Source: Flavisolibacter sp.
GTDB lineage: Bacteria; Bacteroidota; Bacteroidia; Chitinophagales; Chitinophagaceae
Assembly: GCA_035554655.1 (NCBI GenBank)
Contig: DATMIF010000004.1
Span: 8,922-72,921 of the forward strand
Direction of reading: 5' to 3'
Length of the DNA stretch: 64,000 bases
The position numbers and the translations under genes were made by a program. Below, piece after piece: positions 22,080-37,611 of this stretch; within the stretch, counting starts at the first letter, position 1, and each line of letters begins with the position of its first letter. Below the pieces are notes generated by a model. It was not told where the DNA came from. It saw nothing but the letters and a program-made list of their open reading frames with translations, and did not search any database.

Positions 22080-22165
22080 AACGGTATATTTTGTTGAGCT
22101 CAACCGGAGCAGTAATATCAATGTCTATCGCTGCAATTTAAGGCAGTTAAAAATATTTTCACTTT

Positions 22166-22797: not shown

Positions 22798-23910
22798 ATG
22801 ACTTCCCGTCGTGATTTTTTGCAGAAGATCACTTTATCAACTGCAGTTCTTCCATTTTTGCGTTTCAATAAAGAAACTAAAACAACAGTAACAAAAAACT
22901 CCGGTGATGAACGAATCCTTCGTGTTGCCATCATGGGATTAGGCAGTTACGGAAATCGTGTGGCAGAAGCCATGCAATCATGCAAAAGAGCAAAGGTTGC
23001 CGGGGTAATTAGTGGCACGCCTTCTAAAATAAAAGACTGGCAAAGCAGGTACAACATTCCTGATAAGAGCTGTTACAACTACCAAAACTTTGATGCAATA
23101 AAAAACAATCCAGATATCGATGCGGTGTATGTTATTACACCGAATGCCTTGCATCACGACGAAGTAATAAGGGTGGCCAAAGCCGGTAAACATGTCATTT
23201 GCGAAAAACCGATGGCCATAAATGCAAAGGAGGGTCAGGAGATGGTTGATGCATGTAAGAAAGCAAACGTAAAACTGTTGGTAGGTTATCGCATGCACTT
23301 TGAGCCGAAAACTTTGGAAGTGATTCGAATGAGAAAGGACGGCGAGTTAGGAAAGATCATGTTTTTTCAGGGACAAACCGGTTTTACCGCAGGCGATCCC
23401 ACGCAATGGAGATTGAACAAACAACTGTCGGGTGGCGGCTCATTGATGGATATTGGTATTTACTCCATTAATGGTGCCCGCTATATGGTTGGAGAAGAGC
23501 CTATTTGGGTAACCGCACAGGAAACAAAAACGAATCCTGAAAAATTCAAAGAAGGTGTAGATGAAACAATCCAGTTTGAATTTGGTTTTCCAAGCGGTGC
23601 TGTCGCTTCCTGCCTGTCCACTTACAATATGAGCTATCTCGATCGCTTCTTCCTAACAGGTCAAAAAGGTTTTGCAGAATTATGGCCCGCTACAGGTTAT
23701 GGTCCCATTAAAGGAAAAACAAATAAAGGTGAATTGGCGCAACCACACATGACACACCAAACAGTTCAGATGGATGAAATGGCTGCAATTATTTTCGATG
23801 GAAAACAACCAATAGTGCCTGTCGACGGCGAAGAAGGCGTGAGAGATTTAAAACTGATTGATGCCATTTATGAAGCCGCAAGAAAGGGCAAACGAGTAGA
23901 TTTGAAATAG
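22798..23910 (+). CDS. Gfo/Idh/MocA family oxidoreductase with a Tat signal (periplasmic sugar dehydrogenase-like)
   Basis: MTSRRDFLQKITLSTAVLPFL is a twin-arginine signal. Rossmann motif VAIMGLGSYG. The EKP motif (ICEKPMA) is present. Confidence 0.9.
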   Translation: MTSRRDFLQKITLSTAVLPFLRFNKETKTTVTKNSGDERILRVAIMGLGSYGNRVAEAMQSCKRAKVAGVISGTPSKIKDWQSRYNIPDKSCYNYQNFDAIKNNPDIDAVYVITPNALHHDEVIRVAKAGKHVICEKPMAINAKEGQEMVDACKKANVKLLVGYRMHFEPKTLEVIRMRKDGELGKIMFFQGQTGFTAGDPTQWRLNKQLSGGGSLMDIGIYSINGARYMVGEEPIWVTAQETKTNPEKFKEGVDETIQFEFGFPSGAVASCLSTYNMSYLDRFFLTGQKGFAELWPATGYGPIKGKTNKGELAQPHMTHQTVQMDEMAAIIFDGKQPIVPVDGEEGVRDLKLIDAIYEAARKGKRVDLK

Positions 23911-23937
23911 CAGTCTCTTTGTTTAAAATCCGTCAGT

Positions 23938-23980
23938 GGTTTTTATTGGAAGTTTTTTCTTTTCAGTTTTAGATATTTTG
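23938..23980 (+). promoter_or_regulatory. Promoter with the shared 20-bp motif (copy 1), upstream of the RraA-like/enolase/MFS/ALDH operon
   Basis: ggtttttattggaagttttt lies at 23938-23957. A -7-like box TATTTTG lies at 23974-23980, starting 17 nt past the end of the 20-mer. The ATG is 102 nt from the motif start. Confidence 0.6.
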
Positions 23981-24039
23981 TATCCTGTAGTGTTAACCGC
24001 ATTCTTAAAATTATAGTCACTACTAAAACCACTTGCAAT

Positions 24040-24969
24040 ATGAATAAGCAGACTGCTATTCTCTTATCTTTCATTTTTCTTTTTTCATTTTCTCATGCAC
24101 AACAAATACAAATCACTCCCGGTGTTGATCAAATAAAATTGTACACGCCTGATTGGAAAGGTGAACGTTTTCCTGATGGCCGTCCGAAAGTGGCGGACAA
24201 ATTATTGGAACGGTTGAAAAATATTTCGATGGAAGAAGCCTGGGGTTATTTAAGAAATAAAGGTTTTCAAAATCAGTACGAAGGTGACTGGCAGGTTTTG
24301 CGTCCTGATTCAGTAATGGTGGGCCGCGTGGTTACAGCGCAATACATGCCGCTTCGACCTGATGTTGATAGTTTAGTAAGAAAGCAGGGAAGAAAGGAAG
24401 GTCGCATTGGCGGAACGAATTCATGGCCAATAGATGTTTTGAAAGAAGGTGACATTTATGTGGCAGATAGCTATGGAAAAATTGTAGATGGAACTTTAAT
24501 TGGTGATAATCTTGGTAATTCCATTTATGCGCATTCTCATAAGGGTGTCATTTTTTACGGTTCGGTAAGAGATGTTGAAGGTCTTGAGGACATCAATGGT
24601 TTTAATGCATGGATCAAAGGCTCTGATCCTTCTTACATACAACAGATGATGCTTACCGGTATCAACGTCCCTATTCGTATTGGAAGAGCAACTGTGTTGC
24701 CCGGCGATGTTGTCCTGGCCAAAAAAACAGGGACTATTTTTATTCCTGCATCAATGGCGGAGGACCTTGTTTTAAGTTCCGAGTTTATTCAATTGAAGGA
24801 TGAATTTGGTCACCTCCGTTTACGCGAAAAAAAATACACTCCTGGCCAAATTGATCAACAGTGGACAGATGAAATCAAAAAAGATTTTCTTCAGTGGATC
24901 GACGCGAAGAAGAACCTTCCCATGACAAGGCAGGAACTGGATGAATACATGAAGCAAAGAACCTGGTAA
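24040..24969 (+). CDS. Exported RraA-family protein (HMG/CHA aldolase-like fold) with an N-terminal extension
   Basis: Sec signal MNKQTAILLSFIFLFSFSHAQ. RraA-type core: KEGDIYVADSYGKIVDGTLIGDNLG, GSVRD and VLPGDVVLAKKTGTIFIP. Confidence 0.85.
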   Translation: MNKQTAILLSFIFLFSFSHAQQIQITPGVDQIKLYTPDWKGERFPDGRPKVADKLLERLKNISMEEAWGYLRNKGFQNQYEGDWQVLRPDSVMVGRVVTAQYMPLRPDVDSLVRKQGRKEGRIGGTNSWPIDVLKEGDIYVADSYGKIVDGTLIGDNLGNSIYAHSHKGVIFYGSVRDVEGLEDINGFNAWIKGSDPSYIQQMMLTGINVPIRIGRATVLPGDVVLAKKTGTIFIPASMAEDLVLSSEFIQLKDEFGHLRLREKKYTPGQIDQQWTDEIKKDFLQWIDAKKNLPMTRQELDEYMKQRTW

Positions 24970-25028
24970 TAAAACAATCATGCATTGGCAAATAACAATT
25001 ATCCTTCTTTAACTGCAAAACAATCACC

Positions 25029-26525
25029 ATGACACCCGCACAAAAAATTTTATCAAAGCTTGGATTAAAAGATCCGGAAACAATAGAATCAACAAAGATT
25101 TCGAACAGGGAAAATATTTCGGAAAATCCTCGTCGTGATTTTTTGAAGAAATCTGCTCTAGGTGGAATTGCACTTGGTGGAGCATTCATGTTTTCACCAA
25201 TTGAAGAAGTGCTTGCCAATACTACACAGAAAGTAAATCGTTATTCTGCTCCGTCCGATCTGAAAATTACCGATCTGCGTTACGCAACAACAACTGTACT
25301 TGGTCGTACTTCCATCATTCGCATTGATACGAATCAGGGCATTTATGGTCTGGGCGAAGTGAGAGATGGTGCTGATGTTCGATATGCTTTGATGTTGAAG
25401 AGTCGCATACTCGGAATGAATCCCTGCAATGTTGAACTGATCTTCAAAAAAATAAAACAGTTTGGTGGTCCATCGCGACAAGCTGGTGGTGTGTGTGGAG
25501 TGGAGATGGCTTTGTGGGATTTATGCGGTAAGGCTTATAACATTCCAGCATGGCAATTATTAGGAGGAAGATATCGTGATAAAATAAGATTGTATGCTGA
25601 TACGCCGGAAGCGGGTTCGCCAGCAGAACAAAAGAAATTGATGGACTATAGAATTAATGAGCAAGGTTACACCTGGTTGAAAATGGATTTAGGAATTGGC
25701 GAGATCAATAAGATTCCGGGTGCAGTTGTCAATTCAAAATTTTGGGAAACTGAAAAAGGCGATTTGCAGCAATGGGGCAACTGGGGGCCGACAAGCTATT
25801 CCAACACAAGACATGCTTTCACACAAATACAAATTACTGAAAAAGGTTTGGATGAAATGGCGAAACTGGTTGACAACGTAAGAAGCATGTTGGGATATGA
25901 AATTCCACTTTCAACAGATCATTATGGACACTTCGATTTAAATAACGGAATTCGTCTTGGTAAAAAACTAGAGAAGTATCGATTAGCGTGGATGGAAGAT
26001 GTTGTTCCATGGGATTATGTTGATCAATGGAAAACTTTATCAGATTCATTGGAAACGCCAATGCTTACAGGTGAAGATGTTTATTTGCTTTCAGGTTTTA
26101 AACCACTCATCGACATTCATGCAGTAGATATTGTTCATCCAGACCTGGCTTCATCCGGTGGATTGCTCGAAACAAAACGTATTGGTGATTACGCAGAAGA
26201 GCATGGAATTGCCATGGCAATGCACCAGGCGGGAACACCGATTTCATTTATGGCGAATGTTCATTGTGCAGCAGCTACACAAAACTTTTTGGCGCTGGAG
26301 CATCACTCAATTGATTTGCCGTGGTGGGAGAGTTTAGTCAAAACAACTGATGGAAGAAAACTGATCACGAAAGGTTATGCAAATCTTCCGTTGACAGCGC
26401 CGGGACTCGGCGTTGAATTGAATGAAGATGTAGTAAAACAACATTTACATCCTGATGATAAATCTTTCTTTGCACCAACAACGGAGTGGGATCAATTGAG
26501 ATCGCATGACAGGATCTTTAGTTGA
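25029..26525 (+). CDS. Enolase-superfamily enzyme (mandelate racemase/muconate lactonizing family, acid-sugar dehydratase-like) with a Tat signal
   Basis: Twin-arginine motif NPRRDFLKKSALGGIALGG. MR/MLE motifs are present: MALWDLCGK, STDHYGH, LAWMEDVVP, LTGEDVY and DIVHPDLASSGG. Confidence 0.85.
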   Translation: MTPAQKILSKLGLKDPETIESTKISNRENISENPRRDFLKKSALGGIALGGAFMFSPIEEVLANTTQKVNRYSAPSDLKITDLRYATTTVLGRTSIIRIDTNQGIYGLGEVRDGADVRYALMLKSRILGMNPCNVELIFKKIKQFGGPSRQAGGVCGVEMALWDLCGKAYNIPAWQLLGGRYRDKIRLYADTPEAGSPAEQKKLMDYRINEQGYTWLKMDLGIGEINKIPGAVVNSKFWETEKGDLQQWGNWGPTSYSNTRHAFTQIQITEKGLDEMAKLVDNVRSMLGYEIPLSTDHYGHFDLNNGIRLGKKLEKYRLAWMEDVVPWDYVDQWKTLSDSLETPMLTGEDVYLLSGFKPLIDIHAVDIVHPDLASSGGLLETKRIGDYAEEHGIAMAMHQAGTPISFMANVHCAAATQNFLALEHHSIDLPWWESLVKTTDGRKLITKGYANLPLTAPGLGVELNEDVVKQHLHPDDKSFFAPTTEWDQLRSHDRIFS

Positions 26526-26563
26526 GGAAAATTTAGACGCTCCTGCTTTGACAAAAGAATTTT

Positions 26564-27850
26564 ATGGAAACGACAATTGCGAAAACACGATGGTATAGAT
26601 TAGTGCCCATTGCTTTCATAACATACAGTCTTGCTTATTTGGATAGAGCAAATTTTGGTTTTGGTACTGCGGGGGGTATGGCCAAAGATTTAAATATTAC
26701 TCCCGGTATTTCATCATTATTAAGCTCGTTATTCTTTTTAGGTTATTTCTTTTTTCAAATCCCGGGTACGCACTATGCCGCTGTGAGAAGTACAAAAAAA
26801 TTGATCTTCTGGTCGCTCATACTTTGGGGTGCTTGCGCAATGGCAACCGGTATGACCAACAATGTGAACATTTTGATTGCCATCCGTTTTATGCTTGGTG
26901 TAGTGGAAAGTGCAGTTATGCCGGCAATGATTCTTTTGTTGAGCCGGTGGTTCACAAAAAAAGAACGATCAAGAGCTAACACGTTTTTAATTCTTGGCAA
27001 TCCTGTCACCATTTTGTGGATGTCTATTCTCTCCGGTTATTTAATTAATTCCTTGGGTTGGAGATGGATGTTTATACTGGAAGGATTGCCCGCAATCATT
27101 TGGGCTTTCTTTTGGTGGAACCTTGTCAATGACAAACCTAAAGATGCGAAATGGTTATCGCAGGAAGACAAAGATGCTTTGGAAGCAGTTTTGCGAAAGG
27201 AACAGCAAAATATCAAGCCTGTAAAAAATTACATGGAGGCCTTTAAAAGCAAGGCTGTTATTCTGCTTTGTTTGCAATATGCATTTTGGAGCATTGGTGT
27301 TTACGGTTTTGTAATGTGGTTGCCAACCATCATAAAAGGTGCGCCAAATATGAGCATAGTTGAAACCGGATGGCTTGCTTCAGTTCCTTATTTATTTGCG
27401 ATTATTGCGATGCTCATCACTTCTTATTTTTCTGATAAGACATTGAATAGGAAAATTTTTGTTTGGCCATTTTTGTTGATCGGCGCCATTGCATTTTATA
27501 GTTCTTATTTACTTGGAACAAGTAACTTTTGGCTGTCGTTCGCTTTGTTGGTAATTGCTGGTGCAGTTATGTATGCACCTTACGGTCCCTTCTTTGCTAT
27601 CATGCCTGAAATATTACCGTCAAATGTTACAGCGGGTGCCATTGCGCTTATCAACAGCCTGGGTGCTCTAGGCTCCTTTGCAGGATCTTATCTGGTTGGT
27701 TACCTAAATGGGGTAACGGGTGGCTTTGGTGCTTCTTATATTTTTATGTCAGGATCTTTATTGATTGCGGCTATTCTTACAATTATTGCGCTAAAAGATT
27801 CACAGAGGAAAGCTCAGTTGGAACAAAAAATTATCGCCGCAAGCGCATGA
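26564..27850 (+). CDS. MFS transporter, anion:cation symporter (ACS)-like (sugar-acid permease type)
   Basis: Twelve TM segments. The YLDRANFGF motif near TM1 is typical of ACS-family hexuronate/aldonate/tartrate permeases. Confidence 0.85.
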   Translation: METTIAKTRWYRLVPIAFITYSLAYLDRANFGFGTAGGMAKDLNITPGISSLLSSLFFLGYFFFQIPGTHYAAVRSTKKLIFWSLILWGACAMATGMTNNVNILIAIRFMLGVVESAVMPAMILLLSRWFTKKERSRANTFLILGNPVTILWMSILSGYLINSLGWRWMFILEGLPAIIWAFFWWNLVNDKPKDAKWLSQEDKDALEAVLRKEQQNIKPVKNYMEAFKSKAVILLCLQYAFWSIGVYGFVMWLPTIIKGAPNMSIVETGWLASVPYLFAIIAMLITSYFSDKTLNRKIFVWPFLLIGAIAFYSSYLLGTSNFWLSFALLVIAGAVMYAPYGPFFAIMPEILPSNVTAGAIALINSLGALGSFAGSYLVGYLNGVTGGFGASYIFMSGSLLIAAILTIIALKDSQRKAQLEQKIIAASA

Positions 27851-27881
27851 TTCATTTATTTTGCTCATCAAAATTTATTTC

Positions 27882-29492
27882 ATGATCTCAGGATATAATT
27901 TAGTCGGGTTCGAAAAGCAAGCTTCAGGTGAAAAAAAATTACATTCATTCAGCACGGTTCTGAAAAATAATTTGCCCGGAGAGTTTGTTATAGCGACGGA
28001 TAGTGAAATTCAAACTGCAGTTGAAAAAGCAACGACTGCTTTTGAAGTCTACAGGCAAACATCATTTATCGAAAGAGCGAATTTTTTGGATGTAATTGCA
28101 GACGAGATCATGCAAATAGGAGATGAGTTGATCCAGAGAGCTCATCTTGAAAGCGGCCTGCCTGAAGCAAGAATAACCGGCGAACGGGGGAGAACAGTTG
28201 GACAATTGAAACTCTTTGCTTCTCTTTTGCGTGAAGGTTCATTTGTTGAAGCCATTATTGATACGGCATTGCCAGATCGAAAACCTTTGCCTCGTTCCGA
28301 CTTACGCTTAATGCTGCAACCTATCGGCCCGGTAGCTGTTTTTGCGGCAAGCAATTTTCCGTTGGCCTTTTCAACTGCAGGTGGCGATACTGCTTCGGGA
28401 CTTGCTGCGGGTTGTCCCGTAATTGTAAAAGCACATAGTTCTCATTTGGGAACAAATGAACTGGTGGCAACTGCTATCATTTCTGCAGCACAAAAGTGTA
28501 ACATGCCTGATGGCGTTTTTTCTTCGTTAATTGGCGAGGGATCACAACTGGGACAACAATTAGTAAAACATCCACAAATAAAAGCCGTTGGCTTTACAGG
28601 TTCTTTCCGTGCGGGAATGTCCCTGTTGAAAGCATCTGTTAATGAAAGAGAAGAGCCCATTCCTGTATATGCAGAAATGAGCAGCATTAATCCTGTTCTT
28701 GTTCTTCCAAATAAAATCAAACAAGATATTGATACTGTAGTTGCACAACTTACTGCTTCTATCACTCTTGGTGTCGGGCAATTTTGTACCAATCCAGGGT
28801 TATTATTTGTTGTAAAAGATGAAAACACAGAAGCTTTCATTCAGAAGTTAGCCGGATCGTTACAGCAGGTACAACCAGCAATCATGTTGAATCAAACTAT
28901 TTGTGCCGCTTATTACAAAGAACGCCAACATTTGCTAGAGCAGGAAGGTGTAACTGCTTCCTGGGTTGGTGACGATACCAAGGCGGATTACAAAGGCAGC
29001 GCATTACTTGCCCAAACAGAAGCAAAGACTTTTATTCAAAACACGGACTTGCAAAACGAAGTGTTTGGACCTACATCTTTAGTAGTTATTTGTGAAGATG
29101 AAAAAGAGTTACAATCTGCATTAAAATCATTGCATGGACAATTAACCGGAACCGTCATTGGCACTTCAAATGATTTTAGCCAATTCAAAAATTGTATCGA
29201 CATTTTAATATCAAGAGTTGGAAGAGTAATTTATAATGGTGTTCCTACAGGAGTTGAAGTAAGTCATGCGATGATGCATGGCGGGCCTTTTCCTGCAACG
29301 ACATTTGCTCATTTTACGTCGGTCGGTACCGAAGCTATCAAACGTTTCTTACGTCCTGTATGTTACCAGGATTGTCCCCAGGAATTTTTGCCTGATGCAT
29401 TGAAAGATGTAAATCCGCTTCGTACTATGCGAAAGGTAAACGGAGAACTAACACGGGATGCTGTGCAAAAGATGGAAGCAATTCCTCAATAA
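27882..29492 (+). CDS. NAD(P)+ aldehyde dehydrogenase, alpha-ketoglutaric semialdehyde dehydrogenase (KGSADH)-like
   Basis: ALDH catalytic motifs are present: YAEMSSINPV (Glu) and GVGQFCTNPG (Cys). The length and N-terminal pattern match KGSADH-type enzymes. The start was placed at the ATG at 27882; the ORF-track start at 27861 is a TTG. Confidence 0.8.
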   Translation: MISGYNLVGFEKQASGEKKLHSFSTVLKNNLPGEFVIATDSEIQTAVEKATTAFEVYRQTSFIERANFLDVIADEIMQIGDELIQRAHLESGLPEARITGERGRTVGQLKLFASLLREGSFVEAIIDTALPDRKPLPRSDLRLMLQPIGPVAVFAASNFPLAFSTAGGDTASGLAAGCPVIVKAHSSHLGTNELVATAIISAAQKCNMPDGVFSSLIGEGSQLGQQLVKHPQIKAVGFTGSFRAGMSLLKASVNEREEPIPVYAEMSSINPVLVLPNKIKQDIDTVVAQLTASITLGVGQFCTNPGLLFVVKDENTEAFIQKLAGSLQQVQPAIMLNQTICAAYYKERQHLLEQEGVTASWVGDDTKADYKGSALLAQTEAKTFIQNTDLQNEVFGPTSLVVICEDEKELQSALKSLHGQLTGTVIGTSNDFSQFKNCIDILISRVGRVIYNGVPTGVEVSHAMMHGGPFPATTFAHFTSVGTEAIKRFLRPVCYQDCPQEFLPDALKDVNPLRTMRKVNGELTRDAVQKMEAIPQ

Positions 29493-29501
29493 AATCACCC
29501 G

Positions 29502-30107
29502 TTAGTTTTCAGACACTGCTTTTATTTTAATCACAATCTTCTTCACTACTTTGTTACCGCCAGGAGTAATGTTAGGACGGTGTGCTTCTGTTGGAAAAAA
29601 AAGCATGAATGTTCCCGCAGGCACTGTGTAGATTTTTCCTTCGCCTGTATAATTCGCCAGATCAGTTGCTTCATTGTAAGGTTTGCTAACTGCTACAGAA
29701 CTTAGCGATGCCTTAGCCATATTTTCTTCCCCTGTTATCACCAATTGAAGGTCGATATACTTTCGATGCGATTCAAAAGCTGTTTTATCATAGTCTTTTG
29801 TAGGGGCTTCAGTTACGCTGGCATAAACATTGTCGCCATCAATTTCATGTCTGCCAGTGGTAAGCGTTTTCAAATCTGTGTTTTTCAAATAAGCAAAGGC
29901 TTTGTCCCATGCTGTCTTGTTCAGATGATATTGTTTTGCAAATTGTAATTTGTCAATGGACGAATGTGGTGTGACAGAGAGGCCGTGCAGCCATTCTTTT
30001 TTCTTGAACCATTTTTTTGCTTTGTGTGATGACCAATGATTAGTGGATTGTGCAGAAAGATGGCTAACACTAAATAATATCCATACAACCAGAAAAATAC
30101 TTCTCAT
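29502..30107 (-). CDS. Exported YhcH/YjgK/YiaL (DUF386) family protein
   Basis: Signal peptide MRSIFLVVWILFSVSHLSAQ. The HRKYIDLQLVITGEE and FFPTEAH motifs are typical of the family. Confidence 0.8.
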   Translation of the reverse strand: MRSIFLVVWILFSVSHLSAQSTNHWSSHKAKKWFKKKEWLHGLSVTPHSSIDKLQFAKQYHLNKTAWDKAFAYLKNTDLKTLTTGRHEIDGDNVYASVTEAPTKDYDKTAFESHRKYIDLQLVITGEENMAKASLSSVAVSKPYNEATDLANYTGEGKIYTVPAGTFMLFFPTEAHRPNITPGGNKVVKKIVIKIKAVSEN

Positions 30108-30346
30108 ATTGTGACATTTTGCATTCTTAAATTAATTGCGATTTCGTGACACGATAATAAATTAAACCTCCAATGAAGAGCCACAATGTGAACCGGATTT
30201 TCATGTCGAATAAATTTTAGTAAAAAAACAAAGAAAATTAAAAATAAGAGAAGCTGAAGCAAAAAATGTGCAATTAAATCCGACGATAAATTCTACACCC
30301 CTGATAAAATTGCCTGGATTGTAACTTTCTATGACTGCATTTTTTA

Positions 30347-32512
30347 CTAATTCAGACCAGCAATCGCATTTCTCGCCGTTTCTACATCCTTTGCTACGTC
30401 AGGGCGAAGCTTTTCCCAATGAAAAGTAAGATGTTTATTTTCTTCTGAACGTACCCCATTTTGTTCACTATAATGTACAAGTGGCATGTCCTTGTAAATA
30501 GGGCGGGTAATACGAACAATATCATCCCAAAACCTTAAAGCATTTTGCAAGTGTTTTATTGCGTTCTGTCTATTTTCTTCGCCTCCTTTTAGACGATAGG
30601 TTTGCAGTGCTATAGCACCTTTTAATTTCTCTGCAAAATGGAGGCCCATATATGTCCAGGCTTTTGCATCAGCTACTTCAAACATCAAATCATTATTCGC
30701 TGATGTATTGATATCTTTTACCAACCCAAGTGCCCTGTTACAGTCCTGCTGTAGCATTTTAATTAATACCGGTGGTGTTATTTTATTTTTGTTGAAAGAC
30801 GTACCGTTAATAGTTGCATTGACATAGTCTTCAACAGATACATACTCAGGATCAGTTACGCGTTGATGAACGAGACGGTCAACAGAAATATATTCAACCC
30901 GCTTTGCTTTGTCATTCAGGGCCATAAAACCTTCTTCATACAAAGTCAGATCCATTGTAAAATCAAACAGAGATCCAAGACGTAAAGGCGTTTTGCCTGC
31001 TAAAGAAAAAGCTTCGAGTAAATTGCTTCCCTGTTTGCCGTAACGATGAATAAACTCGGCCCGAAAAACAGCATCTTGAGTTTGCGGATTGTATAATAAT
31101 CTTCCCCACAATTTGTAAAACAACCATTGCCTTTCAAAAGCATATTTCCAGCTAACGGAAGTGCCTGGCTTTGTAAAATAGTCCTTTGCCGGAATGTATG
31201 TTTCGGAACCAATCATATACCCGCCAACATAAGATTGACTGTTAGTTGCTATGTGCGATCGTATAAAACTGGGCACACCCCAACGAAGACAGAAAAAATC
31301 TTCGTTACGAACGGTCCAGTTGATCTTATAATTTTTTGGCTCGGGATTGAAGTAGGTATCATACAATTTTCCGCCGTGCACTTTTACTAATGTCGGTGTG
31401 GAATGCGCATGCGACCAATTGTATTTTAGATCGGCAAAAACTGGCGGCTGCAGAAAAGAGAGTTCGCCTTGTGCGTCTAATTCTTTCCTTGTTAATTTTT
31501 CTGTTTCAATGCTGGTAACACCTAAAGAGTTTGTTGTGCTTGAAAAAGGAATGCGGTGAATGAGTTTTAGTTTGCGGCCGGATAAACGCATTCCTTCAAT
31601 GATGGTTTCTTTCATCCATTCTTCCCGCTCTTGCGGTGTCATACCCCCCATGCCTTCACCAAGTGTAAGTCCCATTCCTGTGATTTCGGGATACTCTTGC
31701 AGCATTTGAGTTACACATTCGCGGGTATAACGCTTCACCAGTTCTGAAGTATCGCCTTTTACAAAAAAATCATGTTGAAGGTTATCGATGTTGACGTTAT
31801 GTGCTTTCGAAAATTCAGGGCTTACAAAAATGTTGAAAGGAATGATATAGACATCAATGGCACGTTCTTTTGCCAAGCGAAAAATACCATGAAAAAGCGT
31901 TTGCCATTCTTGCAGCTCTGCATCGGTAAACGATGACGCTTCGGGAAAGTTTTTGGGTTTAATCATGAAGGTGTAGGGATGGAGGTTCCATAAAGTGAGA
32001 GCGTTGAGACGGTTTTCCGTCATCATATCCAAAAATGCTTCCCAAAAATTTAAGTCCTTGCACGTTTCATAATGCAAATCCAACGCATCGCTGTGCCGAT
32101 AAGTGTCCCAGGGCAAATCAAACTTAATGGCACGAAAACCGTAATGGGGACTTTCATGTTTTGACTTGATTGCATCCAACCGGCTTCCGTTTCTTAGTTC
32201 TTCAGCAAGTGATAAACAGCCGTAAATCATTCCTCGGTTATCACCACCCGTGATAATAATTTTTTTGTTCTTAGCCTGAATTGTATAAGCTTCTTCTTTC
32301 AGTTGTTTAGCATCGGTAAAAATTGAAATAACAACGTCCGCTTTCGAACCCTTGAGAATATATCCTTTCGCTGCCAATGCTTTTTCCAACATTTGAGCAC
32401 CATAAGATGCTTGTCGAGATGCATTGTCATAAACGATATTTACGTTTTGAGAAAACGCCAGTGAGTAAAAGATCAACAGAATAATGAGTGAAAAACATCT
32501 CAATCTATTCAT
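30347..32512 (-). CDS. Large exported glycoside-hydrolase-like protein, CAZy family unresolved
   Basis: Signal peptide from the ATG at 32512. The N-terminal domain resembles GH20b/GH67N-type domains (EAYTIQAKNKKIIITGGDNRGMIYG). It is followed by a TIM-barrel-like region (FRAIKFDLPWD, NALTLWNLHPY). Confidence 0.5.
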   Translation of the reverse strand: MNRLRCFSLIILLIFYSLAFSQNVNIVYDNASRQASYGAQMLEKALAAKGYILKGSKADVVISIFTDAKQLKEEAYTIQAKNKKIIITGGDNRGMIYGCLSLAEELRNGSRLDAIKSKHESPHYGFRAIKFDLPWDTYRHSDALDLHYETCKDLNFWEAFLDMMTENRLNALTLWNLHPYTFMIKPKNFPEASSFTDAELQEWQTLFHGIFRLAKERAIDVYIIPFNIFVSPEFSKAHNVNIDNLQHDFFVKGDTSELVKRYTRECVTQMLQEYPEITGMGLTLGEGMGGMTPQEREEWMKETIIEGMRLSGRKLKLIHRIPFSSTTNSLGVTSIETEKLTRKELDAQGELSFLQPPVFADLKYNWSHAHSTPTLVKVHGGKLYDTYFNPEPKNYKINWTVRNEDFFCLRWGVPSFIRSHIATNSQSYVGGYMIGSETYIPAKDYFTKPGTSVSWKYAFERQWLFYKLWGRLLYNPQTQDAVFRAEFIHRYGKQGSNLLEAFSLAGKTPLRLGSLFDFTMDLTLYEEGFMALNDKAKRVEYISVDRLVHQRVTDPEYVSVEDYVNATINGTSFNKNKITPPVLIKMLQQDCNRALGLVKDINTSANNDLMFEVADAKAWTYMGLHFAEKLKGAIALQTYRLKGGEENRQNAIKHLQNALRFWDDIVRITRPIYKDMPLVHYSEQNGVRSEENKHLTFHWEKLRPDVAKDVETARNAIAGLN

Positions 32513-32596
32513 AAACAAAAATTGCCTGTGCAATTTATCATGTTTTGTTGCAGATACTCATAGGCATATTGATCAACGGCTTCTGGCGATAAACAA

Positions 32597-33871
32597 TTAC
32601 GCAAAGAAAGGCACCTCCGGTGTTGCGTATTTTTTCAAGCCTTCTTCATTAATTTCGACACCAATTCCCGGTTTGTCCGATACAACCAGAAACCCTTTTT
32701 CAATGAATGGCTTGTCATATTTGACGATCTCTTTCCATTTTGGTTCTGTATCGCTTAATGTTTGCCATTCAAGAATATGAAAATTTGGTACCGATGCGCA
32801 GACATGTGCTGATGCCATTGCTCCAAGAAATGAACCAACCATATGTGGTGAAAAAGGTGTGTAGTAGGCGTTCGCAAGATTAGCAATACGTTGTCCTTCA
32901 CCAAGTCCTCCGCATTTTTGAAGATCGGGCATGATGATATCAATAGCTGCTTCGGACAACAACCTAGTATATCCATATGTCAGGTAGAAATTTTCTCCTC
33001 CGCAAATGGGTGTGCTGGTTTCCTGTGTGATGGTTTTATAAACGTCAATATTATCAGCAGGAACAGGTTCTTCAAGCCACATCAGGTTCAATGGCTCCAT
33101 CACCTTTGCTACTTTTCTTCCGGTTGGTGCGTCGTAGCGTCCATGCATGTCAACGCAAATATCAATGTGAGGTCCTACTGCTTTGCGAACCGCTTCAATG
33201 GAATTGTACATTCTTTCAATTTCGGCATTGCTTGCCGTCCAGTTCCACCTGTCATATTTGTTTGGATCAGTTGCCGAGTCAATATCAAACTTAATGGCAG
33301 TATAACCTCTTGCAACTGCATCCATACCTGCTTTTGCATAATCTTCGGGTTTGGGATTCCTCACTGCATATAATTCGGTATCGCAATACACTCTTACTTT
33401 ATCCCGAAACTTTCCACCTAATAATTGATAGACAGGTAAGCCTAATGCTTTCCCGCATAAATCCCAGAGCGCAGCATCAAATGCACTCAGCACTGCTACA
33501 TACATTCCTGATTGAGCGCCACCAAAAAAGGCTTGCTTGCGAAATTGCTCAAAGATGACGTTTGGAGATAATGGACTTCTTCCATTTAATTGTTTTCCTA
33601 ATCGTTGAACCAAATAATAAGTTCCGCCTATGGCATCCACAGCTTCACCATAACCTACAATATCCTGGTTGGTATAAATTTTTACGAATAATCCGCCACC
33701 TGAGTAGGCGCATTTGACGTCAGTAATTTTTAAATCTGATGGTGCAGATGGTTTGGATGTTTTTTCTATTGCATGTTCGAGTCCGCGTCCATATGTTTTA
33801 GATAAAGATGCAAACGGAGCCAATGCTGCTGCTATAGCTGTCTTTGTAACGAACGATCTTCTTGTCGACAT
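32597..33871 (-). CDS. Enolase-superfamily enzyme (MR/MLE family, acid-sugar dehydratase-like) with a Tat signal; paralog of 25029-26525
   Basis: MSTRRSFVTKTAIAAALAPFASL is a twin-arginine signal. It shares SAPSDLKITD with the paralog. Motifs AALWDLCGK, CVDMHGRY, LMWLEEPVP, CGGENFY and DIIMPDLQKCGG are present. Confidence 0.85.
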   Translation of the reverse strand: MSTRRSFVTKTAIAAALAPFASLSKTYGRGLEHAIEKTSKPSAPSDLKITDVKCAYSGGGLFVKIYTNQDIVGYGEAVDAIGGTYYLVQRLGKQLNGRSPLSPNVIFEQFRKQAFFGGAQSGMYVAVLSAFDAALWDLCGKALGLPVYQLLGGKFRDKVRVYCDTELYAVRNPKPEDYAKAGMDAVARGYTAIKFDIDSATDPNKYDRWNWTASNAEIERMYNSIEAVRKAVGPHIDICVDMHGRYDAPTGRKVAKVMEPLNLMWLEEPVPADNIDVYKTITQETSTPICGGENFYLTYGYTRLLSEAAIDIIMPDLQKCGGLGEGQRIANLANAYYTPFSPHMVGSFLGAMASAHVCASVPNFHILEWQTLSDTEPKWKEIVKYDKPFIEKGFLVVSDKPGIGVEINEEGLKKYATPEVPFFA

Positions 33872-33931
33872 AAACAGTATTTTGAGGGTGAAAAGAAGTT
33901 TGAGTTGATTTTTGTTTTTAGTCAGTATTTA

Positions 33932-34888
33932 TTACCATGTTCTGTCTTTCAAATAATTTTGAATCGTTTCTTTTGGAACGGGCAATTCATTAATGTGGTC
34001 ATTCAACCACTTTGAAAAATCTTTTTCAATATCGTCCGTCCATCTTGCATCAATTTGTCCCGCTGTGTATTTTCCTTCTCTCAATCGCTGGTGTCCGAAC
34101 AAATCTCTCAACCGAACAATTTCTGAAGTGATCACAACTTTTTCTGCTAGCTGTGGAGGAATAAAAACAACAACACCCAATTTGCCTAATACAACATCAC
34201 CCGGCATAACAGTTACAGTTCTTATGCGTGTTGGATGATTAATACCAACAATCATTGTGGTGAGATCCCTGCTTTGCCCTGCACCAGGATTGTGATAAGA
34301 AGGATCGTAGCTTGTATAAAAGGAAGTAAAGCCGCCAATTTCTTTCAGGCCTTCCAAATCTCTTATGGCGCCGTCATACACAATTCCATTTCCTGTCCTT
34401 GCATAAATAGCATTACCTATATTGTCACCAATAGTTGGACCGTTTCTTTTAGCGCCAAATTGGTCGGCAACATATACATCTCCTTTTTGTAGCATTTCCA
34501 CAGCCCAAACATTTTGAGCTCTTCTTCCTTCTTTCTTTCCAAAAGAGTCAATCACACTCCAAACATCCGGGCGGCCAGGCATGAACGTTGCTGTTACTGC
34601 ACGGCCAACGAGCACACTGTCAGGATTGATTGTTTCCCATCCTTCGGCAATCTGATACCTGTAACCTGCATTCGTGAGAACAGCCCACGCTTCTTCAACA
34701 CTTACAGCTTTCATTCTTCTAATGATATCATCAGGCACTTTAGGGCGACCATCGGGAAAACGTTCTCCTTTCCATTCATGTGTTAATGCAATGAGTTCTT
34801 CTTTGCTTATTTGCACATGCTGTGCTATTGCCTGGTTAAAGACAAATGCTATTGTAAATAGGGATAGCAAACGTTTCATCATTAACAT
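33932..34888 (-). CDS. Exported RraA-family protein; paralog of 24040-24969
   Basis: Signal peptide MKRLLSLFTIAFVFNQAIAQ. It shares WKGERFPDGRPKV with the paralog. The GAIRD motif and VMPGDVVLGKLGVVVFIP are present. Confidence 0.85.
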   Translation of the reverse strand: MLMMKRLLSLFTIAFVFNQAIAQHVQISKEELIALTHEWKGERFPDGRPKVPDDIIRRMKAVSVEEAWAVLTNAGYRYQIAEGWETINPDSVLVGRAVTATFMPGRPDVWSVIDSFGKKEGRRAQNVWAVEMLQKGDVYVADQFGAKRNGPTIGDNIGNAIYARTGNGIVYDGAIRDLEGLKEIGGFTSFYTSYDPSYHNPGAGQSRDLTTMIVGINHPTRIRTVTVMPGDVVLGKLGVVVFIPPQLAEKVVITSEIVRLRDLFGHQRLREGKYTAGQIDARWTDDIEKDFSKWLNDHINELPVPKETIQNYLKDRTW

Positions 34889-34916
34889 GGGTGTATTTAT
34901 TTTTTAGTTAGAGGAT

Positions 34917-36044
34917 TTAAGTAAGACTTACTTCTACAGGTGTCTCTTCTTTTTTAGAAGGATTTTCTTTCGGCAAATGATTGTGCCACCAACTTGCTAA
35001 ACAAGAACCATTCACATTCATCACAGGTCCGAAGATGGCCGGCGCTAATCCTACAGTTGCAATTTTGCCCATGGTTAATGCCAGACCTGTTGCAAGTCCC
35101 GCATTCTGCATTCCAACTTCTAATGCAATTGTTCTGCAATCTCTTTCTCGAAATTTTAATAAGCGTGCAGACCAGTATCCAAGAAAAAAACCAGCAACAT
35201 TATGAAGAAACGTTGCTACCAGCAACAGCGCTCCGACCTTTAAAAGATTATCTCTTCCGGCTGCAACCATAATGGCTAGGATGATTGCAATGCCGGCCAT
35301 TGAAAGAAGTGGCATGATCTTATCAAGCCAATTGAATCTTCCACGCATTAAATAGTGAAATGCTAATCCGGCAACAATAGGAATGATCACAATCTTTGTA
35401 ATATCCCACACCATCGACCAAAAATCAATTTGCACAAAACTTCCACCAAGCAGTTTTAAAAGCAGTGGCGTTAGAAAAGGCGCAAGCAATGTTGATATGG
35501 TTGTAACTGAAACCGACAATGCAAGATTGGCTCTTGCGAGATAAGACATTACGTTTGATGCCAGGCCGCTCGGGCAACATCCAACTAAAATAATTCCTGC
35601 AGCAATCTCGTTGGGAAAATGGAATAAACTCGCAATTGTGAAACCAATTAGTGGCATGATCAAATAGTGGAAGACAACGCCAACTATTATTCCCTTAGGC
35701 ATGCGCACCACGTTAACAAAATCTTTCAAACTTAATTCTGTACCCATGCCGAACATGATGATTTGAAGCAATGGAATAATTAACGCTGATAGTTTGAAAC
35801 TGCCGATTGTTTTAAAATATTGCGGATGATACATAGCAAAACTCACAACACCAATGATGATTACAGTAAAAGAAAGCCCCTTTAAGAATTGATTGCCTCT
35901 GAATGCGATGGCAAGACAGAAAAAAAATAGCATCAATAACCAGCCAGCTAAATTGTGCGATTGCTTAATAGTTAGAATTAGCCAGGCAATTAAAAAAATA
36001 AATGCAGCTAAGTAAAGTATGGTATGGATGGATTTTCGTTTCAT
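34917..36044 (-). CDS. Bile acid:sodium symporter (BASS/SBF) family transporter
   Basis: A polytopic membrane protein with the SBF-type motif GCCPSGLASNVMSYLARANLALSV. Confidence 0.85.
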   Translation of the reverse strand: MKRKSIHTILYLAAFIFLIAWLILTIKQSHNLAGWLLMLFFFCLAIAFRGNQFLKGLSFTVIIIGVVSFAMYHPQYFKTIGSFKLSALIIPLLQIIMFGMGTELSLKDFVNVVRMPKGIIVGVVFHYLIMPLIGFTIASLFHFPNEIAAGIILVGCCPSGLASNVMSYLARANLALSVSVTTISTLLAPFLTPLLLKLLGGSFVQIDFWSMVWDITKIVIIPIVAGLAFHYLMRGRFNWLDKIMPLLSMAGIAIILAIMVAAGRDNLLKVGALLLVATFLHNVAGFFLGYWSARLLKFRERDCRTIALEVGMQNAGLATGLALTMGKIATVGLAPAIFGPVMNVNGSCLASWWHNHLPKENPSKKEETPVEVSLT

Positions 36045-36071
36045 AGCAAGTAATGAGAAGTGATTATCGTT

Positions 36072-37598
36072 TTAGTTGTCCTGTTGTAGATCAGCAATGG
36101 CCTCAAATTCATCAAACAGCTTCACGCTCAATCTTTCAAAAATTGAGTAATGCTTCATATAAACACTATGGAGTTCTTTGCTAGGAGTAAAACTGTCCGG
36201 CAGTTTCACCGTTTCCGCAGCCTCATCTAAATTTTTATACAAGCCAATCTCAGTTGCACTTAGTAAAAAAGATCCAAAAGCAACACTGTCGGAACCCGAC
36301 CCCTGCTTAATATGGACAGGCTTGTTGAAAACATCCGCCATCAACTGCGTCCAGAAAGGATAAGAAGCAAAGGTCCCGTTTGCAGAAAGCCTTTTAAACG
36401 AGCGATGCTCTTCCAAAGTTTTTCCGATGCTATAAATAGCATATAATATTCCTTCAATTGTGGCACGAACGAAATGCTGCTGTTCGTGTTTGATGTTTAA
36501 TCCGAAATAGACACCTCTTGCATTCGCATTCCACATCGGTGCCCTTTCACCTTGCAGGTAAGGAAGAAAAATCAATCCATCAGATCCTGGCGCAACCTTT
36601 GCTGCATCAGCGATCAGGTTTTCAATACAGTCTTCAAGGTCAAATGCTTTTTTGAAATCTCCGAATTGCTTTGCGTACCATTCAAACACAGCGCCTGCAT
36701 TGTTCGTTGGGCCACCGGATATATAGTGATCTTCAGTCAGCAGGTAGTTAAACAACCGCTGCTTTTCGTCCTGCAAAACTTCTTTGCCTACTACTCTTAC
36801 GGCTCCGCTTTCTTCAAGTGTAACCGTAGCTTTTCCATCTCCCCACACGCCGGCGCCCAGCGTAGCCATGCAACCATCGCTTGATCCCACAAGTAATTTC
36901 ACTTTGTCATGTAAGCCCAGAGAAGTCTGATATTCTTTTTTCAATTTCTTTGGAGCATAAAAAACAGAAACAAGATCAGCCAGTTTTTCTTTCTCTATGC
37001 CTGCGTGTTTCAATGCATTCTCTTCCCATTTTATTGTGCGGATATTCAACATGCCCGTTGCAGAAGCCATGCTATAATCAACTATGTATTCACCTGTCAG
37101 TTGCTGTATGATGTAAGTTTTGATGGAGAGAAATTTTTGTGCGGCATTGAAACGTTGCTTATCATTATTTTTTAGCCAGGTTATTTTGTTGAGTGGAGAC
37201 ATTGCATGTATTGGTGTGCCGGTGGTTTTATACAATGACTTTCCGAGCGAAGAATTTTTAAGATCATCAGCTTCCTTTTTTGCACGATTATCTGACCACA
37301 CCATTGCATAGCCAAGAGGAACGCCATTCTTGTCAATTGGCAAAACACTATGCATTGCCGAACTAAAACAAATACAAACAACTTTGTACTTGCGGGGATG
37401 AATTTTTTCATTCAAAAAATTCTTTAGGATATAAAGCATTGTGATGAAGATCTGTTCGGGATCTTGTTCGCTATAATCAGGTTTAACATGAAAAGTGGGA
37501 TAGGATCCCTTTGAAGATCCAAGCATGTTGCCTTTTAAATCGAATGCTACCACTCTTATGGCGCCTGTTCCTATTTCGATGGTAATAACACAATCCAT
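36072..37598 (-). CDS. FGGY-family carbohydrate kinase (gluconokinase-like)
   Basis: IEIGTGAIRVVAFD (phosphate-1) and VGSSDGCMATLGAG motifs are present. The start was set at the ATG at 37598, which avoids overlap with the AraC gene. Confidence 0.8.
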   Translation of the reverse strand: MDCVITIEIGTGAIRVVAFDLKGNMLGSSKGSYPTFHVKPDYSEQDPEQIFITMLYILKNFLNEKIHPRKYKVVCICFSSAMHSVLPIDKNGVPLGYAMVWSDNRAKKEADDLKNSSLGKSLYKTTGTPIHAMSPLNKITWLKNNDKQRFNAAQKFLSIKTYIIQQLTGEYIVDYSMASATGMLNIRTIKWEENALKHAGIEKEKLADLVSVFYAPKKLKKEYQTSLGLHDKVKLLVGSSDGCMATLGAGVWGDGKATVTLEESGAVRVVGKEVLQDEKQRLFNYLLTEDHYISGGPTNNAGAVFEWYAKQFGDFKKAFDLEDCIENLIADAAKVAPGSDGLIFLPYLQGERAPMWNANARGVYFGLNIKHEQQHFVRATIEGILYAIYSIGKTLEEHRSFKRLSANGTFASYPFWTQLMADVFNKPVHIKQGSGSDSVAFGSFLLSATEIGLYKNLDEAAETVKLPDSFTPSKELHSVYMKHYSIFERLSVKLFDEFEAIADLQQDN

Positions 37599-37611
37599 TT
37601 TCAATAATTTT

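Follow-up and report, generated by a model that had tools for sequence, protein, structure and literature searches.

Two paralogous gene pairs, each consisting of a long RraA-like gene followed by a gene of the enolase superfamily (MR/MLE), lie in a 64,000-nucleotide stretch of a Flavisolibacter sp. genome (assembly GCA_035554655.1, contig DATMIF010000004.1, positions 8,922 to 72,921; hereafter the window), and we read them, with moderate confidence, as the enzymes at the heart of a widespread module for acid-sugar catabolism in the periplasm, set within a SusC/SusD uptake locus. The RraA-like/enolase pair is a real, conserved unit in other genomes, and both of its proteins are, judged from their N-terminal sequences, very probably exported, the RraA-like one as a Sec substrate and the enolase by twin-arginine translocation (Tat). 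The family assignments, the predicted export signals, the pairing and the conservation of catalytic residues are supported by sequence and comparative evidence; what the enzymes convert, by which reactions and in what order, is inferred. The four genes are:

24040-24969, + strand: RraA1, 309 aa, long RraA/HMG-CHA-aldolase-like protein with predicted Sec signal (Pfam PF03737, E 1.3e-17)
25029-26525, + strand: Eno1, 498 aa, enolase-superfamily (MR/MLE) protein with predicted Tat signal (MR_MLE_C, E 3e-44)
33932-34888, - strand: RraA2, 318 aa, RraA-like paralogue with predicted Sec signal (PF03737, E 1.5e-16)
32597-33871, - strand: Eno2, 424 aa, enolase-superfamily (MR/MLE) protein with predicted Tat signal (MR_MLE_C, E 1.5e-59)

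All four open reading frames (ORFs) named in the first-pass annotation of this DNA were reproduced exactly, coordinates included, by a mechanical ORF list, and every motif quoted there is present (WKGERFPDGRPKV, RRDFLKKSALGG, TRRSFVTKTAIAAALA, SAPSDLKITD, STDHYGH/CVDMHGRY, WMEDV/WLEEP, TGED/GGEN and GSVRD/GAIRD).

Families and conserved residues of the two proteins

RraA1 and RraA2 are 46% identical and score 64.9 and 61.4 bits with PF03737, against a cut-off of 24.5 bits. The AlphaFold2 model of RraA1 (pLDDT 92.6) has an RraA-like fold, with 5ir2, 3k4i, 5x15 and 3noj as the top Foldseek matches and further matches to 2c5q and 1j3l. The best structural neighbour, 5ir2, has the RraA fold and was deposited as a 'novel cellulase from microbes associated with the gut ecosystem'. 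R177-D178 of RraA1 align with R123-D124 of the HMG/CHA aldolase in PDB 3noj, and across 107 RraA-like orthologues Q21, R177 and D178 (RraA1 numbering) are invariant, together with D138, D156, N157, R96, R106, D108 and an N-terminal W39-x-G-E-R...G-R-P block. Retention of the catalytic-looking motifs, claimed earlier for both protein types, was thus borne out by the Arg-Asp pair here and, in the enolases, by invariant metal ligands and an invariant His/Asp dyad, and the RraA-like proteins look catalytically competent as far as conservation can tell.

The N-terminal extension of about 130 residues that the first-pass annotation had ascribed to both RraA-like proteins is for the most part the normal N-terminal segment of long RraA/HMG-CHA-aldolase types: the alignment to PDB 5x15 begins at RraA1 residue 53 and that to NCBIfam PRK08245 at residue 51. 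What stands of the claim is a subfamily-specific part of only ~30 residues, which includes a W-x-GERFPDGRPKV block; because signal-less Firmicutes homologues have this block as well, it is unrelated to export. In a rough neighbour-joining tree, exported and cytoplasmic RraA-like proteins separate, and RraA1 and RraA2 form sister groups within Bacteroidota.

By its profile matches the RraA-like protein resembles the HMG/CHA aldolase family and appears to fall outside the LigK/PcmE equivalog (TIGR02798, 55 vs 304.5 bits; PRK09262, 53 vs 179 bits). A role as RNase E regulator (model PRK09372, 38 vs 136 bits) is implausible, since predicted export would part the protein from cytoplasmic RNase E. 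It is also very improbable that the RraA-like protein serves as a non-catalytic partner of the enolase (regulator, inhibitor or assembly factor) by analogy with RraA and RNase E. Such a role would fit the strict gene adjacency and the fact that, among solved structures, the nearest by sequence is that of the RNase ES inhibitor RraAS2 (PDB 5x15); however, the Arg-Asp pair and many polar residues are invariant in the 107 sequences, the RraA-like and enolase proteins take different export routes, some RraA-like genes have no enolase neighbour, and RNase E is cytoplasmic.

RraA-like domains also occur in fusions (P0123, P0233 and P0269), the partners being DUF1080 (3-keto-disaccharide hydrolase) on the N-terminal side, a region resembling glucuronoyl esterase on the C-terminal side, and a lactonase domain of the SGL family; NCBIfam PRK12764 describes a fusion of FAH and RraA-like parts. 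Fusions with GH2, GH3 or SDR C-termini (P0170, P0171, P0178 and P0254) share one identical N-terminus, look like assembly or gene-call chimeras, and were left unused.

Both enolases exceed the cut-offs of MR_MLE_N and MR_MLE_C in Pfam, in keeping with an N-terminal capping domain and a modified TIM barrel at the C-terminal end, and have dozens of relatives in the PDB; they are 32% identical to each other. The nearest PDB entry of Eno2 is 2qq6 (E 1.2e-94), aligned from Eno2 residue 44. The residues invariant in 99 enolases (67 Eno1-type and 32 Eno2-type) are D241/E267/E293, the D316/H343 dyad, E368 and K194/D196 (Eno2 numbering), of which we take the first three to be the metal ligands expected where barrel strands 3-5 end, and D316/H343 the general bases, from the alignment and general knowledge. 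With these residues in place, Eno1 and Eno2 look catalytically competent. Four positions are fixed differently in the Eno2 and Eno1 groups (H243 vs Y/F, R245 vs H, K319 vs S/T and W369 vs H), and Eno2 carries a GalD-like D-x-H motif, the His of which is replaced by Tyr or Phe in Eno1. The group-specific active-site residues imply two distinct specificities, and Eno1 and Eno2 would each represent an enolase-superfamily subgroup of its own, so far uncharacterised.

By far the best NCBIfam matches of the enolases are acid-sugar dehydratase models of the GalD, ManD and gluconate-dehydratase types, all of them under the equivalog cut-offs (Eno2: PRK14017 234 vs 311 bits, NF040790 227 vs 750 bits; Eno1: 172 vs 311 and 146 vs 550 bits). 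A third type of Tat-signal enolase, ManD-like and with the motif ...LYG[YL]GCATFTQRA..., adjoins RraA-like genes in three related loci (L094, 5395-6729, - strand; L042, 6530-7894; L058, 28-1299), and two of the 35 Eno2-type matches belong to this type.

The family matches also bear on a route for aromatic or lignin-derived acids, in which tricarboxylic ring-cleavage products would be handled by a lactonising enzyme of the muconate-cycloisomerase type together with a true HMG/CHA-type aldolase. In its favour, aromatic pathways include enzymes of both superfamilies, there are matches to the LigK/PcmE and muconate cycloisomerase models, and the window holds many feruloyl/acetyl-esterase-like proteins. 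We nevertheless regard this route as very unlikely, as Eno2 matches acid-sugar dehydratase models at E 2e-69 vs 1e-26 for muconate cycloisomerase, the LigK model reaches 55 of the 304 bits of its cut-off, and the conserved neighbours of the pairs are sugar kinases, lactonase, UxuA and SusC/SusD, with no ring-cleavage genes seen among them.

Export signals

RraA1 has a predicted signal at residues 1-20 (24040-24099) with Gln21 at +1, and RraA2 one at residues 1-22 (34823-34888). Both satisfy, heuristically, the Bacteroidota-type pattern of Sec export and signal peptidase I cleavage, with a positively charged n-region, a hydrophobic h-region and a small-x-small cleavage site; Gln is often the first mature residue of Bacteroidota signal-peptidase-I substrates. 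In Eno1 the twin arginines are residues 35-36 and the signal region extends over residues ~1-63 (25029-25217), while in Eno2 they are residues 4-5 and the mature domain begins at about residue 44. Both enolases show a motif of the S/T-R-R-x-F-L-K type with a hydrophobic stretch behind it, and with the NCBIfam model TAT_signal_seq (TIGR01409, cut-off 16.7 bits), Eno1 scores 23.4 bits and Eno2 19.0 bits.

These signals were compared across related loci. Relatives of the RraA-like protein are encoded by at least 595 genomes (one genome per species was scanned, with an 8-sequence alignment of RraA-like proteins as the seed), and the best 80 of these at least 595 loci were analysed. A hydrophobic N-terminus, defined as a 10-mer with a Kyte-Doolittle mean of at least 2.0, is present in all 105 full-length RraA orthologues (78/78 for RraA1 and 27/27 for RraA2). 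An [AGS]-Q junction occurs in 102 of the 105, located 14-21 residues upstream of the W-x-GER block (14 or 16 residues in 94 of them). The twin arginines are kept in 66/66 Eno1 matches, one of them as a KR variant, and in 34/35 Eno2 matches, the lone exception being an ORF at a contig end; apparent misses of the Tat pattern in the enolase orthologues are RRxFF variants. The Tat motif is also kept in Acidobacteriota enolases. The earlier calls of Sec signals on both RraA-like proteins and of twin-arginine signals on both enolases therefore hold.

The part of Eno1 ahead of the twin arginines (residues 1-34, 25029-25130, of which ~30 residues are conserved) is of unusual length and conservation for a Tat n-region. 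Its sequence, conserved within each family, is MTPSQKYLxKLGLKD... for Chitinophagaceae and MKSxLQxxIxxNK... for Cyclobacteriaceae.

Cytoplasmic relatives begin where the mature domains of the exported proteins begin: PDB 2qq6 aligns from Eno2 residue 44, and the signal-less Firmicutes orthologue of Eno1, which shares 45% identity with its mature part, has its start five residues ahead of the S-x-PSDL-[KR]-ITD block. The existence of a signal-less two-enzyme version in Firmicutes establishes the signals as add-ons to a conserved functional unit. It is hardly credible that the signals are mis-called starts and the proteins four ordinary cytoplasmic enzymes. The ORF calls are mechanical and Eno1 has its unusual 34 residues ahead of the twin arginines, both of which would allow it; against it, every orthologue conserves the amino-acid sequence of the signal regions, including the Eno1 pre-RR region and the invariant +1 Gln, independent gene callers chose the same starts, and the cytoplasmic orthologues begin exactly at the mature domains. 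By this comparison the export signals are real features, far beyond chance, rather than start-codon artefacts. The extracytoplasmic placement proposed at first for both enzymes is strongly supported by signal conservation in all Bacteroidota orthologues scanned and in two of three Acidobacteriota loci, as a prediction from sequence.

Conserved pairing in related loci

The first-pass annotation had suggested checking how often Tat-bearing MR/MLE genes accompany long RraA-like genes, and the neighbourhoods answer it clearly. Counting enolase genes on the same strand and at most 400 bp after the RraA gene, in loci with enough sequence, an enolase gene follows RraA1 in 64/70 loci, and RraA2 is followed by Eno2 in 27/27.

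The usual layout in Cyclobacteriaceae (Algoriphagus and relatives) and Pontibacter is SusC-SusD-RraA2-Eno2-RraA1-Eno1-SBF transporter, a compact module with no further conserved enzyme and often with FecR or ECF-sigma genes upstream; the pair is often the sole enzymatic content of a SusC/SusD locus. Candidate carriers in culture are Algoriphagus yeomjeoni DEN5, A. jejuensis JCM 16112, A. iocasae DSM 102044, Pontibacter sp. E15-1, Arthrospiribacter ruber and Lunatimonas salinarum. Chitinophagaceae have AraC-FGGY kinase-RraA1-Eno1-SBF(-RraA2-Eno2), divergent from SusC/SusD and at times with a Tat-signal GFO gene. Metagenome-assembled genomes (MAGs) of Bacteroidales have one RraA1-Eno1 pair beside an operon of SBF and KdgK-like genes, Zn-dependent dehydrogenases, PfkB kinases and a GH88-like lipoprotein. 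Near the pairs, Chitinophagaceae have GntK-like kinases, and Bacteroidales have KdgK-like ones beside SBF.

Outside the Bacteroidota, Tat MR_MLE and Sec RraA-like genes stand beside pyrroloquinoline quinone (PQQ) dehydrogenases in two of the three Acidobacteriota loci examined, where the neighbours also include cytochromes c and Tat-signal UxuA-like dehydratases, all of periplasmic type. Signal-less versions, accompanied by SDR dehydrogenases, were seen in three Firmicutes loci, for example in an operon MR_MLE-SDR-SDR-RraA-like; in variants, the RraA-like gene is transcribed separately, close to MR_MLE and SDR, and the locus includes UxuA plus an ABC transporter (Cohnella) or a lactonase (Massilimaliae). 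Clostridial loci show LacI-Eda-PfkB-RraA-like. The dehydrogenase partner accordingly varies by compartment, NAD-dependent SDR inside and Tat-GFO or PQQ outside, while the enolase/RraA-like core is constant. Two further contigs, L067 (labelled Planctomycetota) and L040 (labelled Limnohabitans), have a module layout of the Cyclobacteriaceae type; we suspect mis-binning and did not count them as extra phyla.

Tat-signal proteins resembling UxuA-type mannonate dehydratases were seen near RraA-like genes in a Rikenellaceae MAG (L031, 12709-13839) and in Acidobacteriota (L094, 9554-10720 and 10876-12033), so that a second dehydratase fold is apparently exported too.

An acid-sugar context of the pairs is supported by these comparisons, because the relatives of the enolases are of GalD, ManD and gluconate-dehydratase types and the neighbours fit (transporters, kinases, lactonase, and GFO or PQQ dehydrogenases). 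Full-text literature searches, with subscription-only works outside their coverage, returned no description of this module and no paper tying RraA-like proteins to enolase-superfamily enzymes, sugar acids, polysaccharide utilization loci (PULs) or the periplasm.

Operons and the proposed pathway

The pairs of the window belong to two convergent operons with short intergenic gaps, GFO-RraA1-Eno1-MFS-ALDH and AraC-FGGY-SBF-RraA2-Eno2-GH138-like-YhcH, the second of which is divergent from SusC/SusD:

22798-23910, + strand: GFO/IDH/MocA oxidoreductase with predicted Tat signal, upstream of RraA1 (Pfam GFO_IDH_MocA; TIGR01409 17.9 bits)
26564-27850, + strand: MFS transporter of the anion:cation symporter/D-galactonate-transporter type, 38 bp after Eno1 (Pfam MFS_1; TIGR00893 264 vs 395 bits)
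27861-29492, + strand: aldehyde dehydrogenase (ALDH), last gene of its operon, likely start 27882 (Pfam Aldedh, E 5.6e-49)
29502-30107, - strand: YhcH/YjgK/YiaL (DUF386) protein with predicted Sec signal, sugar-acid anomerase-type, last gene of its operon (Pfam DUF386, E 1.3e-41)
30347-32533, - strand: signal-bearing glycoside-hydrolase-like protein of 728 aa, downstream of Eno2 (GH138 alpha-galacturonidase BPa0997, PDB 6hze, E 8e-30 over residues 27-317)
34917-36044, - strand: SBF/BASS-family Na+ symporter (Pfam SBF, E 2.5e-43), usually the last module gene, following Eno1 in most of the 80 loci
36072-37649, - strand: FGGY kinase, nearest to gluconokinase (TIGR01314 gntK_FGGY, 451 vs 648 bits)
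37612-38502, - strand: AraC-family regulator (Pfam HTH_AraC/HTH_18), divergent from SusC, its position conserved in Chitinophagaceae
38681-41842, + strand: SusC-like TonB-dependent transporter (Pfam Plug/CarbopepD_reg_2)
41842-43392, + strand: SusD-like lipoprotein (Pfam SusD-like_2)

SusC and SusD (38681-43392), together with degradative enzymes and the AraC regulator, make this a PUL. They adjoin the pairs in many of the 80 loci and are proposed as the cognate outer-membrane importer of the module; their nearest solved SusD relatives bind glycans (beta-glucans and chitin). The SBF protein is PanS-like (250 bits, cut-off 400) and has ASBT homologues in the PDB (E 9e-61); members of the SBF/BASS family transport pyruvate, 2-keto acids, pantoate, bile acids and similar small carboxylates, and we propose that this one imports the small carboxylate product. 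The AraC-FGGY-RraA1-Eno1 order is conserved in Chitinophagaceae loci; the true start of the FGGY kinase is probably the ATG at 37598, and having no signal peptide it should be cytoplasmic. The same applies to the ALDH, for which the gene call in the related locus L001 starts at the equivalent of 27882 and which gives weak matches to 2,5-dioxovalerate and alpha-ketoglutarate-semialdehyde dehydrogenases. The GFO protein, whose best NCBIfam match is the Gfo6 D-xylose 1-dehydrogenase (206 vs 350 bits), is a candidate periplasmic sugar dehydrogenase by its sequence; homologues lie within 8 kb of the pairs in 5/80 loci (L007, L008, L012, L014 and L038) and also occur in L005 and L006.

In the proposed pathway, an acid sugar would cross the outer membrane via SusC/SusD, or a sugar could be oxidised to the acid in the periplasm by the Tat-GFO enzyme here or by PQQ dehydrogenases in Acidobacteriota, perhaps with a lactonase. 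Exported Eno1 and Eno2 would bind the carboxylate on Mg2+, take the alpha proton and eliminate the beta hydroxyl to give a 2-keto-3-deoxy acid. The exported RraA-like enzymes, with their HMG/CHA-aldolase fold, Arg-Asp metal/enolate site and Mg2+, would then act on the keto acid by C3 carbanion chemistry; retro-aldol cleavage to pyruvate and an aldehyde is the simplest and most likely reaction, other options being elimination at C4 and the hydrolysis of a 2,4-diketo acid. A small 2-oxo-carboxylate would enter the cell via the SBF/BASS symporter, here possibly also via the MFS anion transporter, and catabolism would finish in the cytoplasm with a gluconokinase-like or 2-keto-3-deoxygluconate (KDG)-kinase-like kinase, or with an aldehyde dehydrogenase.

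Several observations weigh against this pathway. Pyruvate cleavage would leave the GntK-like and KdgK-like kinases, and the Eda and KdgK neighbours of Clostridial loci, without an obvious substrate, which favours a non-aldolase reaction or another order of steps. The RraA gene comes first and the enolase gene second in the operons. The compact Cyclobacteriaceae module has no dehydrogenase, so that the imported substrate must there already be an acid. One of the three Acidobacteriota loci has an RraA-like gene with no enolase neighbour, every equivalog model stays below its cut-off (GalD and LigK among them), and the signal peptides were called by heuristics and one hidden Markov model rather than by SignalP or TatP.

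The first-pass annotation had proposed retro-aldol cleavage or decarboxylation for the RraA step; both are candidate reactions, and KDG-kinase and Eda neighbours as well as twin-dehydrogenase operons leave room for other 2-keto-acid chemistry. In one alternative, which we consider unlikely, the module is likewise periplasmic, with a non-aldolase reaction for its RraA-like enzyme, which would carry out a C4 beta-elimination (as an analogue of Weimberg-type KdpD/XylX, giving a 2,5-dioxo acid), hydrolyse a 2,4-diketo-3-deoxy acid (as an analogue of LRA6/FAH) or epimerise C4, and the cell would take up an intact keto acid for phosphorylation or oxidation. The pair comes with two dehydrogenases in Firmicutes (SDR-SDR) and in one Acidobacteriota locus (two PQQ enzymes), which fits routes with a sugar 1-dehydrogenase and a keto-deoxy-acid 4-dehydrogenase; the PRK12764 fusion, the KdgK-like, GntK-like and Eda neighbours, and the MFS and ALDH genes after Eno1 in the window, the ALDH with its weak likeness to alpha-ketoglutarate-semialdehyde dehydrogenase, point the same way. 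Yet the compact Cyclobacteriaceae module is free of any oxidoreductase, ALDH is missing from the 80 related loci, and we know of no RraA-fold enzyme for C4 elimination, diketo-acid hydrolysis or C4 epimerisation.

The glycan-binding relatives of SusD raise a different and quite improbable alternative, namely that the pairs act on oligosaccharides: the enolase would dehydrate a C1-oxidised aldonic end and the RraA-like enzyme would eliminate the 4-O-linked glycan, a non-hydrolytic 'peeling' of the products of lytic polysaccharide monooxygenases (LPMOs) or dehydrogenases. Service by SusC/SusD, FecR/ECF control typical of glycan PULs in Cyclobacteriaceae, a compact module with no glycoside hydrolase, the fusion of an RraA-like domain to DUF1080, the deposition of 5ir2 as a 'cellulase' and the presence of DauC (PDB 5olc) among the enolase structure matches are all consistent with it; enolase-superfamily cycloisomerases, DauC among them, eliminate 3-O ethers. 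The proposal is purely inferential, however, the Firmicutes orthologues reside in ordinary monosaccharide-type operons, and enolase active sites are usually lid-closed over small substrates. It is rather improbable that the pairs constitute an unrecognised class of non-hydrolytic carbohydrate-active enzymes, which strip an oxidised (aldonic or uronic) end residue from imported oligosaccharides by successive carbanion-driven eliminations in the periplasm. If they did, Bacteroidota and Acidobacteria would have a pathway of their own for glycans that LPMOs or periplasmic dehydrogenases have oxidised, and a complete non-phosphorylative sugar-acid pathway would lie outside the cytoplasm.

We retain, with the moderate confidence stated above, periplasmic catabolism of acid sugars as the function of the pairs. 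If the signals work as predicted, part of the sugar-acid catabolism of soil, aquatic and gut Bacteroidota and Acidobacteria would be periplasmic, and locus annotation and carbon-flow models for oxidised sugars would change. A large RraA-like subfamily, now annotated as 'RNase E regulator' or 'HMG aldolase', would gain a carbohydrate-metabolic context.

The xylan setting of the window

The window (G+C ~40%), which matches metagenome contigs of Chitinophagaceae type, is a xylan locus that encodes GH10, GH43 and GH8 proteins and many esterases in addition to a GH67. Two further genes referred to in this section are:

13969-16038: GH67, a real gene of the window
21258-22079, - strand: beta-propeller protein with predicted Sec signal and weak lactonase similarity (Pfam Arylesterase E 3.7e-5 and SGL E 8.6e-4, both under cut-off)

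Uronate or aldonate derivatives released from glucuronoxylan by the GH67, including 4-O-methyl-glucuronate, had been put forward as substrates of the pairs. This link is not conserved: no homologue of GH67, GH10, GH43, CE, ALDH, IlvD or FAH was found within 8 kb of the pairs in any of the 80 loci, and homologues of the window's GH8 occur in two of them. Since the homologues of the xylan genes are missing from the related loci, the xylan setting is local to this genome, and glucuronoxylan-derived acids are at most a local substrate. A direct role of the enolases as 4-O-methyl-glucuronate methanol-lyase or uronate dehydratase is chemically possible and was set aside.

The glycoside-hydrolase-like protein downstream of Eno2 matches an NCBIfam alpha-D-galacturonidase model at 156 vs 1300 bits, has no family match beyond its N-terminal ~300 residues and has no homologue among the 80 related loci; it may represent a new uronidase-like family. 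The DUF386 protein, with an N-terminal signal visible in the translation, reaches 94 of 160 bits with an N-acetylneuraminate anomerase model, and the beta-propeller protein corresponds to a 273-aa gene call in L001. Together with the GFO protein, these two are three more normally cytoplasmic enzyme types that bear export signals here. A scan of 22000-39000 for sigma-70 promoters and terminators gave counts at or below shuffled expectation; as the model is a sigma-70 one and Bacteroidota promoters differ, it is uninformative.

Other candidate genes of sugar metabolism lie further along the window. Directly after SusD, 43555-46148 (+ strand) encodes a signal-less IlvD/EDD dehydratase (L-arabinonate dehydratase model, 851 bits vs a cut-off of 882) and an FAH-family protein, a pair of the classical cytoplasmic Weimberg type. 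The cluster at 47720-53374 (+ strand), with genes for a DeoR regulator, a FucI_C-domain isomerase (weakly like sulfoquinovose isomerase), a split transketolase and an FGGY kinase similar to glycerol kinase, resembles a pathway for a sugar or polyol that is as yet uncharacterised. Further non-CAZyme candidates of the xylan locus are a GMC oxidoreductase at 1271-2974 and, at 53391-54740, an Sde182 nucleoside-hydrolase-like/DUF5060 protein (both + strand).

Comparison with known systems

Enolase-superfamily acid-sugar dehydratases and RraA-fold lyases are textbook cytoplasmic enzymes, and we know of no description of an acid-sugar dehydratase or lyase step in the periplasm, nor did the literature searched contain one. 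The earlier statement that no characterised pathway pairs the two enzyme types stands for the RraA fold; cytoplasmic pairs of an enolase-superfamily dehydratase and a class II pyruvate aldolase are, however, well known (RhmD/RhmA and GudD/GarL). In the E. coli systems for L-rhamnonate (RhmD/YfaW, RhmA/YfaU and RhmT) and glucarate (GudD and GarL), the dehydratase gene lies beside genes for a Mg2+-dependent class II aldolase and an acid-sugar transporter, with the same dehydrate-then-cleave logic. RhmA and GarL, however, have the HpcH/TIM-barrel fold rather than the RraA fold; those systems are entirely cytoplasmic and have neither export signals nor SusC/SusD, both of which the present module has; and the rhamnonate, talarate and glucarate dehydratase models score far under their cut-offs on the enolases here.

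The HMG/CHA aldolase (LigK/GalC/ProA; PDB 3noj) has in common with the RraA-like proteins the RraA-type fold (Foldseek E 1e-13) and the aligned Arg-Asp pair, at ~18% identity; it is cytoplasmic and acts on aromatic ring-cleavage products, whereas the proteins here have in addition the conserved N-terminal block, a C-terminal helical extension of ~70 aa and a signal peptide. RraAS2 of Streptomyces coelicolor, nearest in sequence among the solved proteins (E 1.8e-17, residues 53-264), is a long-form RraA, described as a cytoplasmic RNase ES inhibitor, with neither a signal peptide nor an enolase partner. For the enolases, the nearest solved relative of both Eno2 and Eno1 (E 4e-54 for the latter) is the MR/MLE-like protein of Rubrobacter xylanophilus in PDB 2qq6, which has the same motif set, no Tat signal, and is itself functionally uncharacterised.

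The Weimberg/Dahms and L-fucose/L-rhamnose routes (FucD/LRA3, KDF-4-dehydrogenase and FAH hydrolase) run from a dehydrogenase and a lactonase to an enolase-type dehydratase and then a keto-deoxy-acid enzyme, an arrangement mirrored by the Firmicutes operon MR_MLE-SDR-SDR-RraA-like; the last enzyme of such non-phosphorylative pathways is of the FAH, DHDPS or HpcH family and is not known to be RraA-like, and the known versions are all cytoplasmic. Periplasmic oxidation by Tat-GFO or PQQ enzymes is known from Zymomonas GFOR, the PQQ glucose dehydrogenase and the GFO-type glycoside 3-dehydrogenase of Bacteroides, and such enzymes flank the pairs here and in Acidobacteriota; the systems described so far go no further than the aldonate or ketoaldonate, or else split 3-keto-glycosides. 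In function, the module is closest to the cytoplasmic RhmD/RhmA and GudD/GarL pairs and the non-phosphorylative sugar pathways, and in location to periplasmic sugar oxidation by GFOR or PQQ enzymes. Set against all of these, the new elements of the present module are the RraA-fold partner, the conserved Tat and Sec signals predicted to export both enzymes, and the embedding in SusC/SusD loci.

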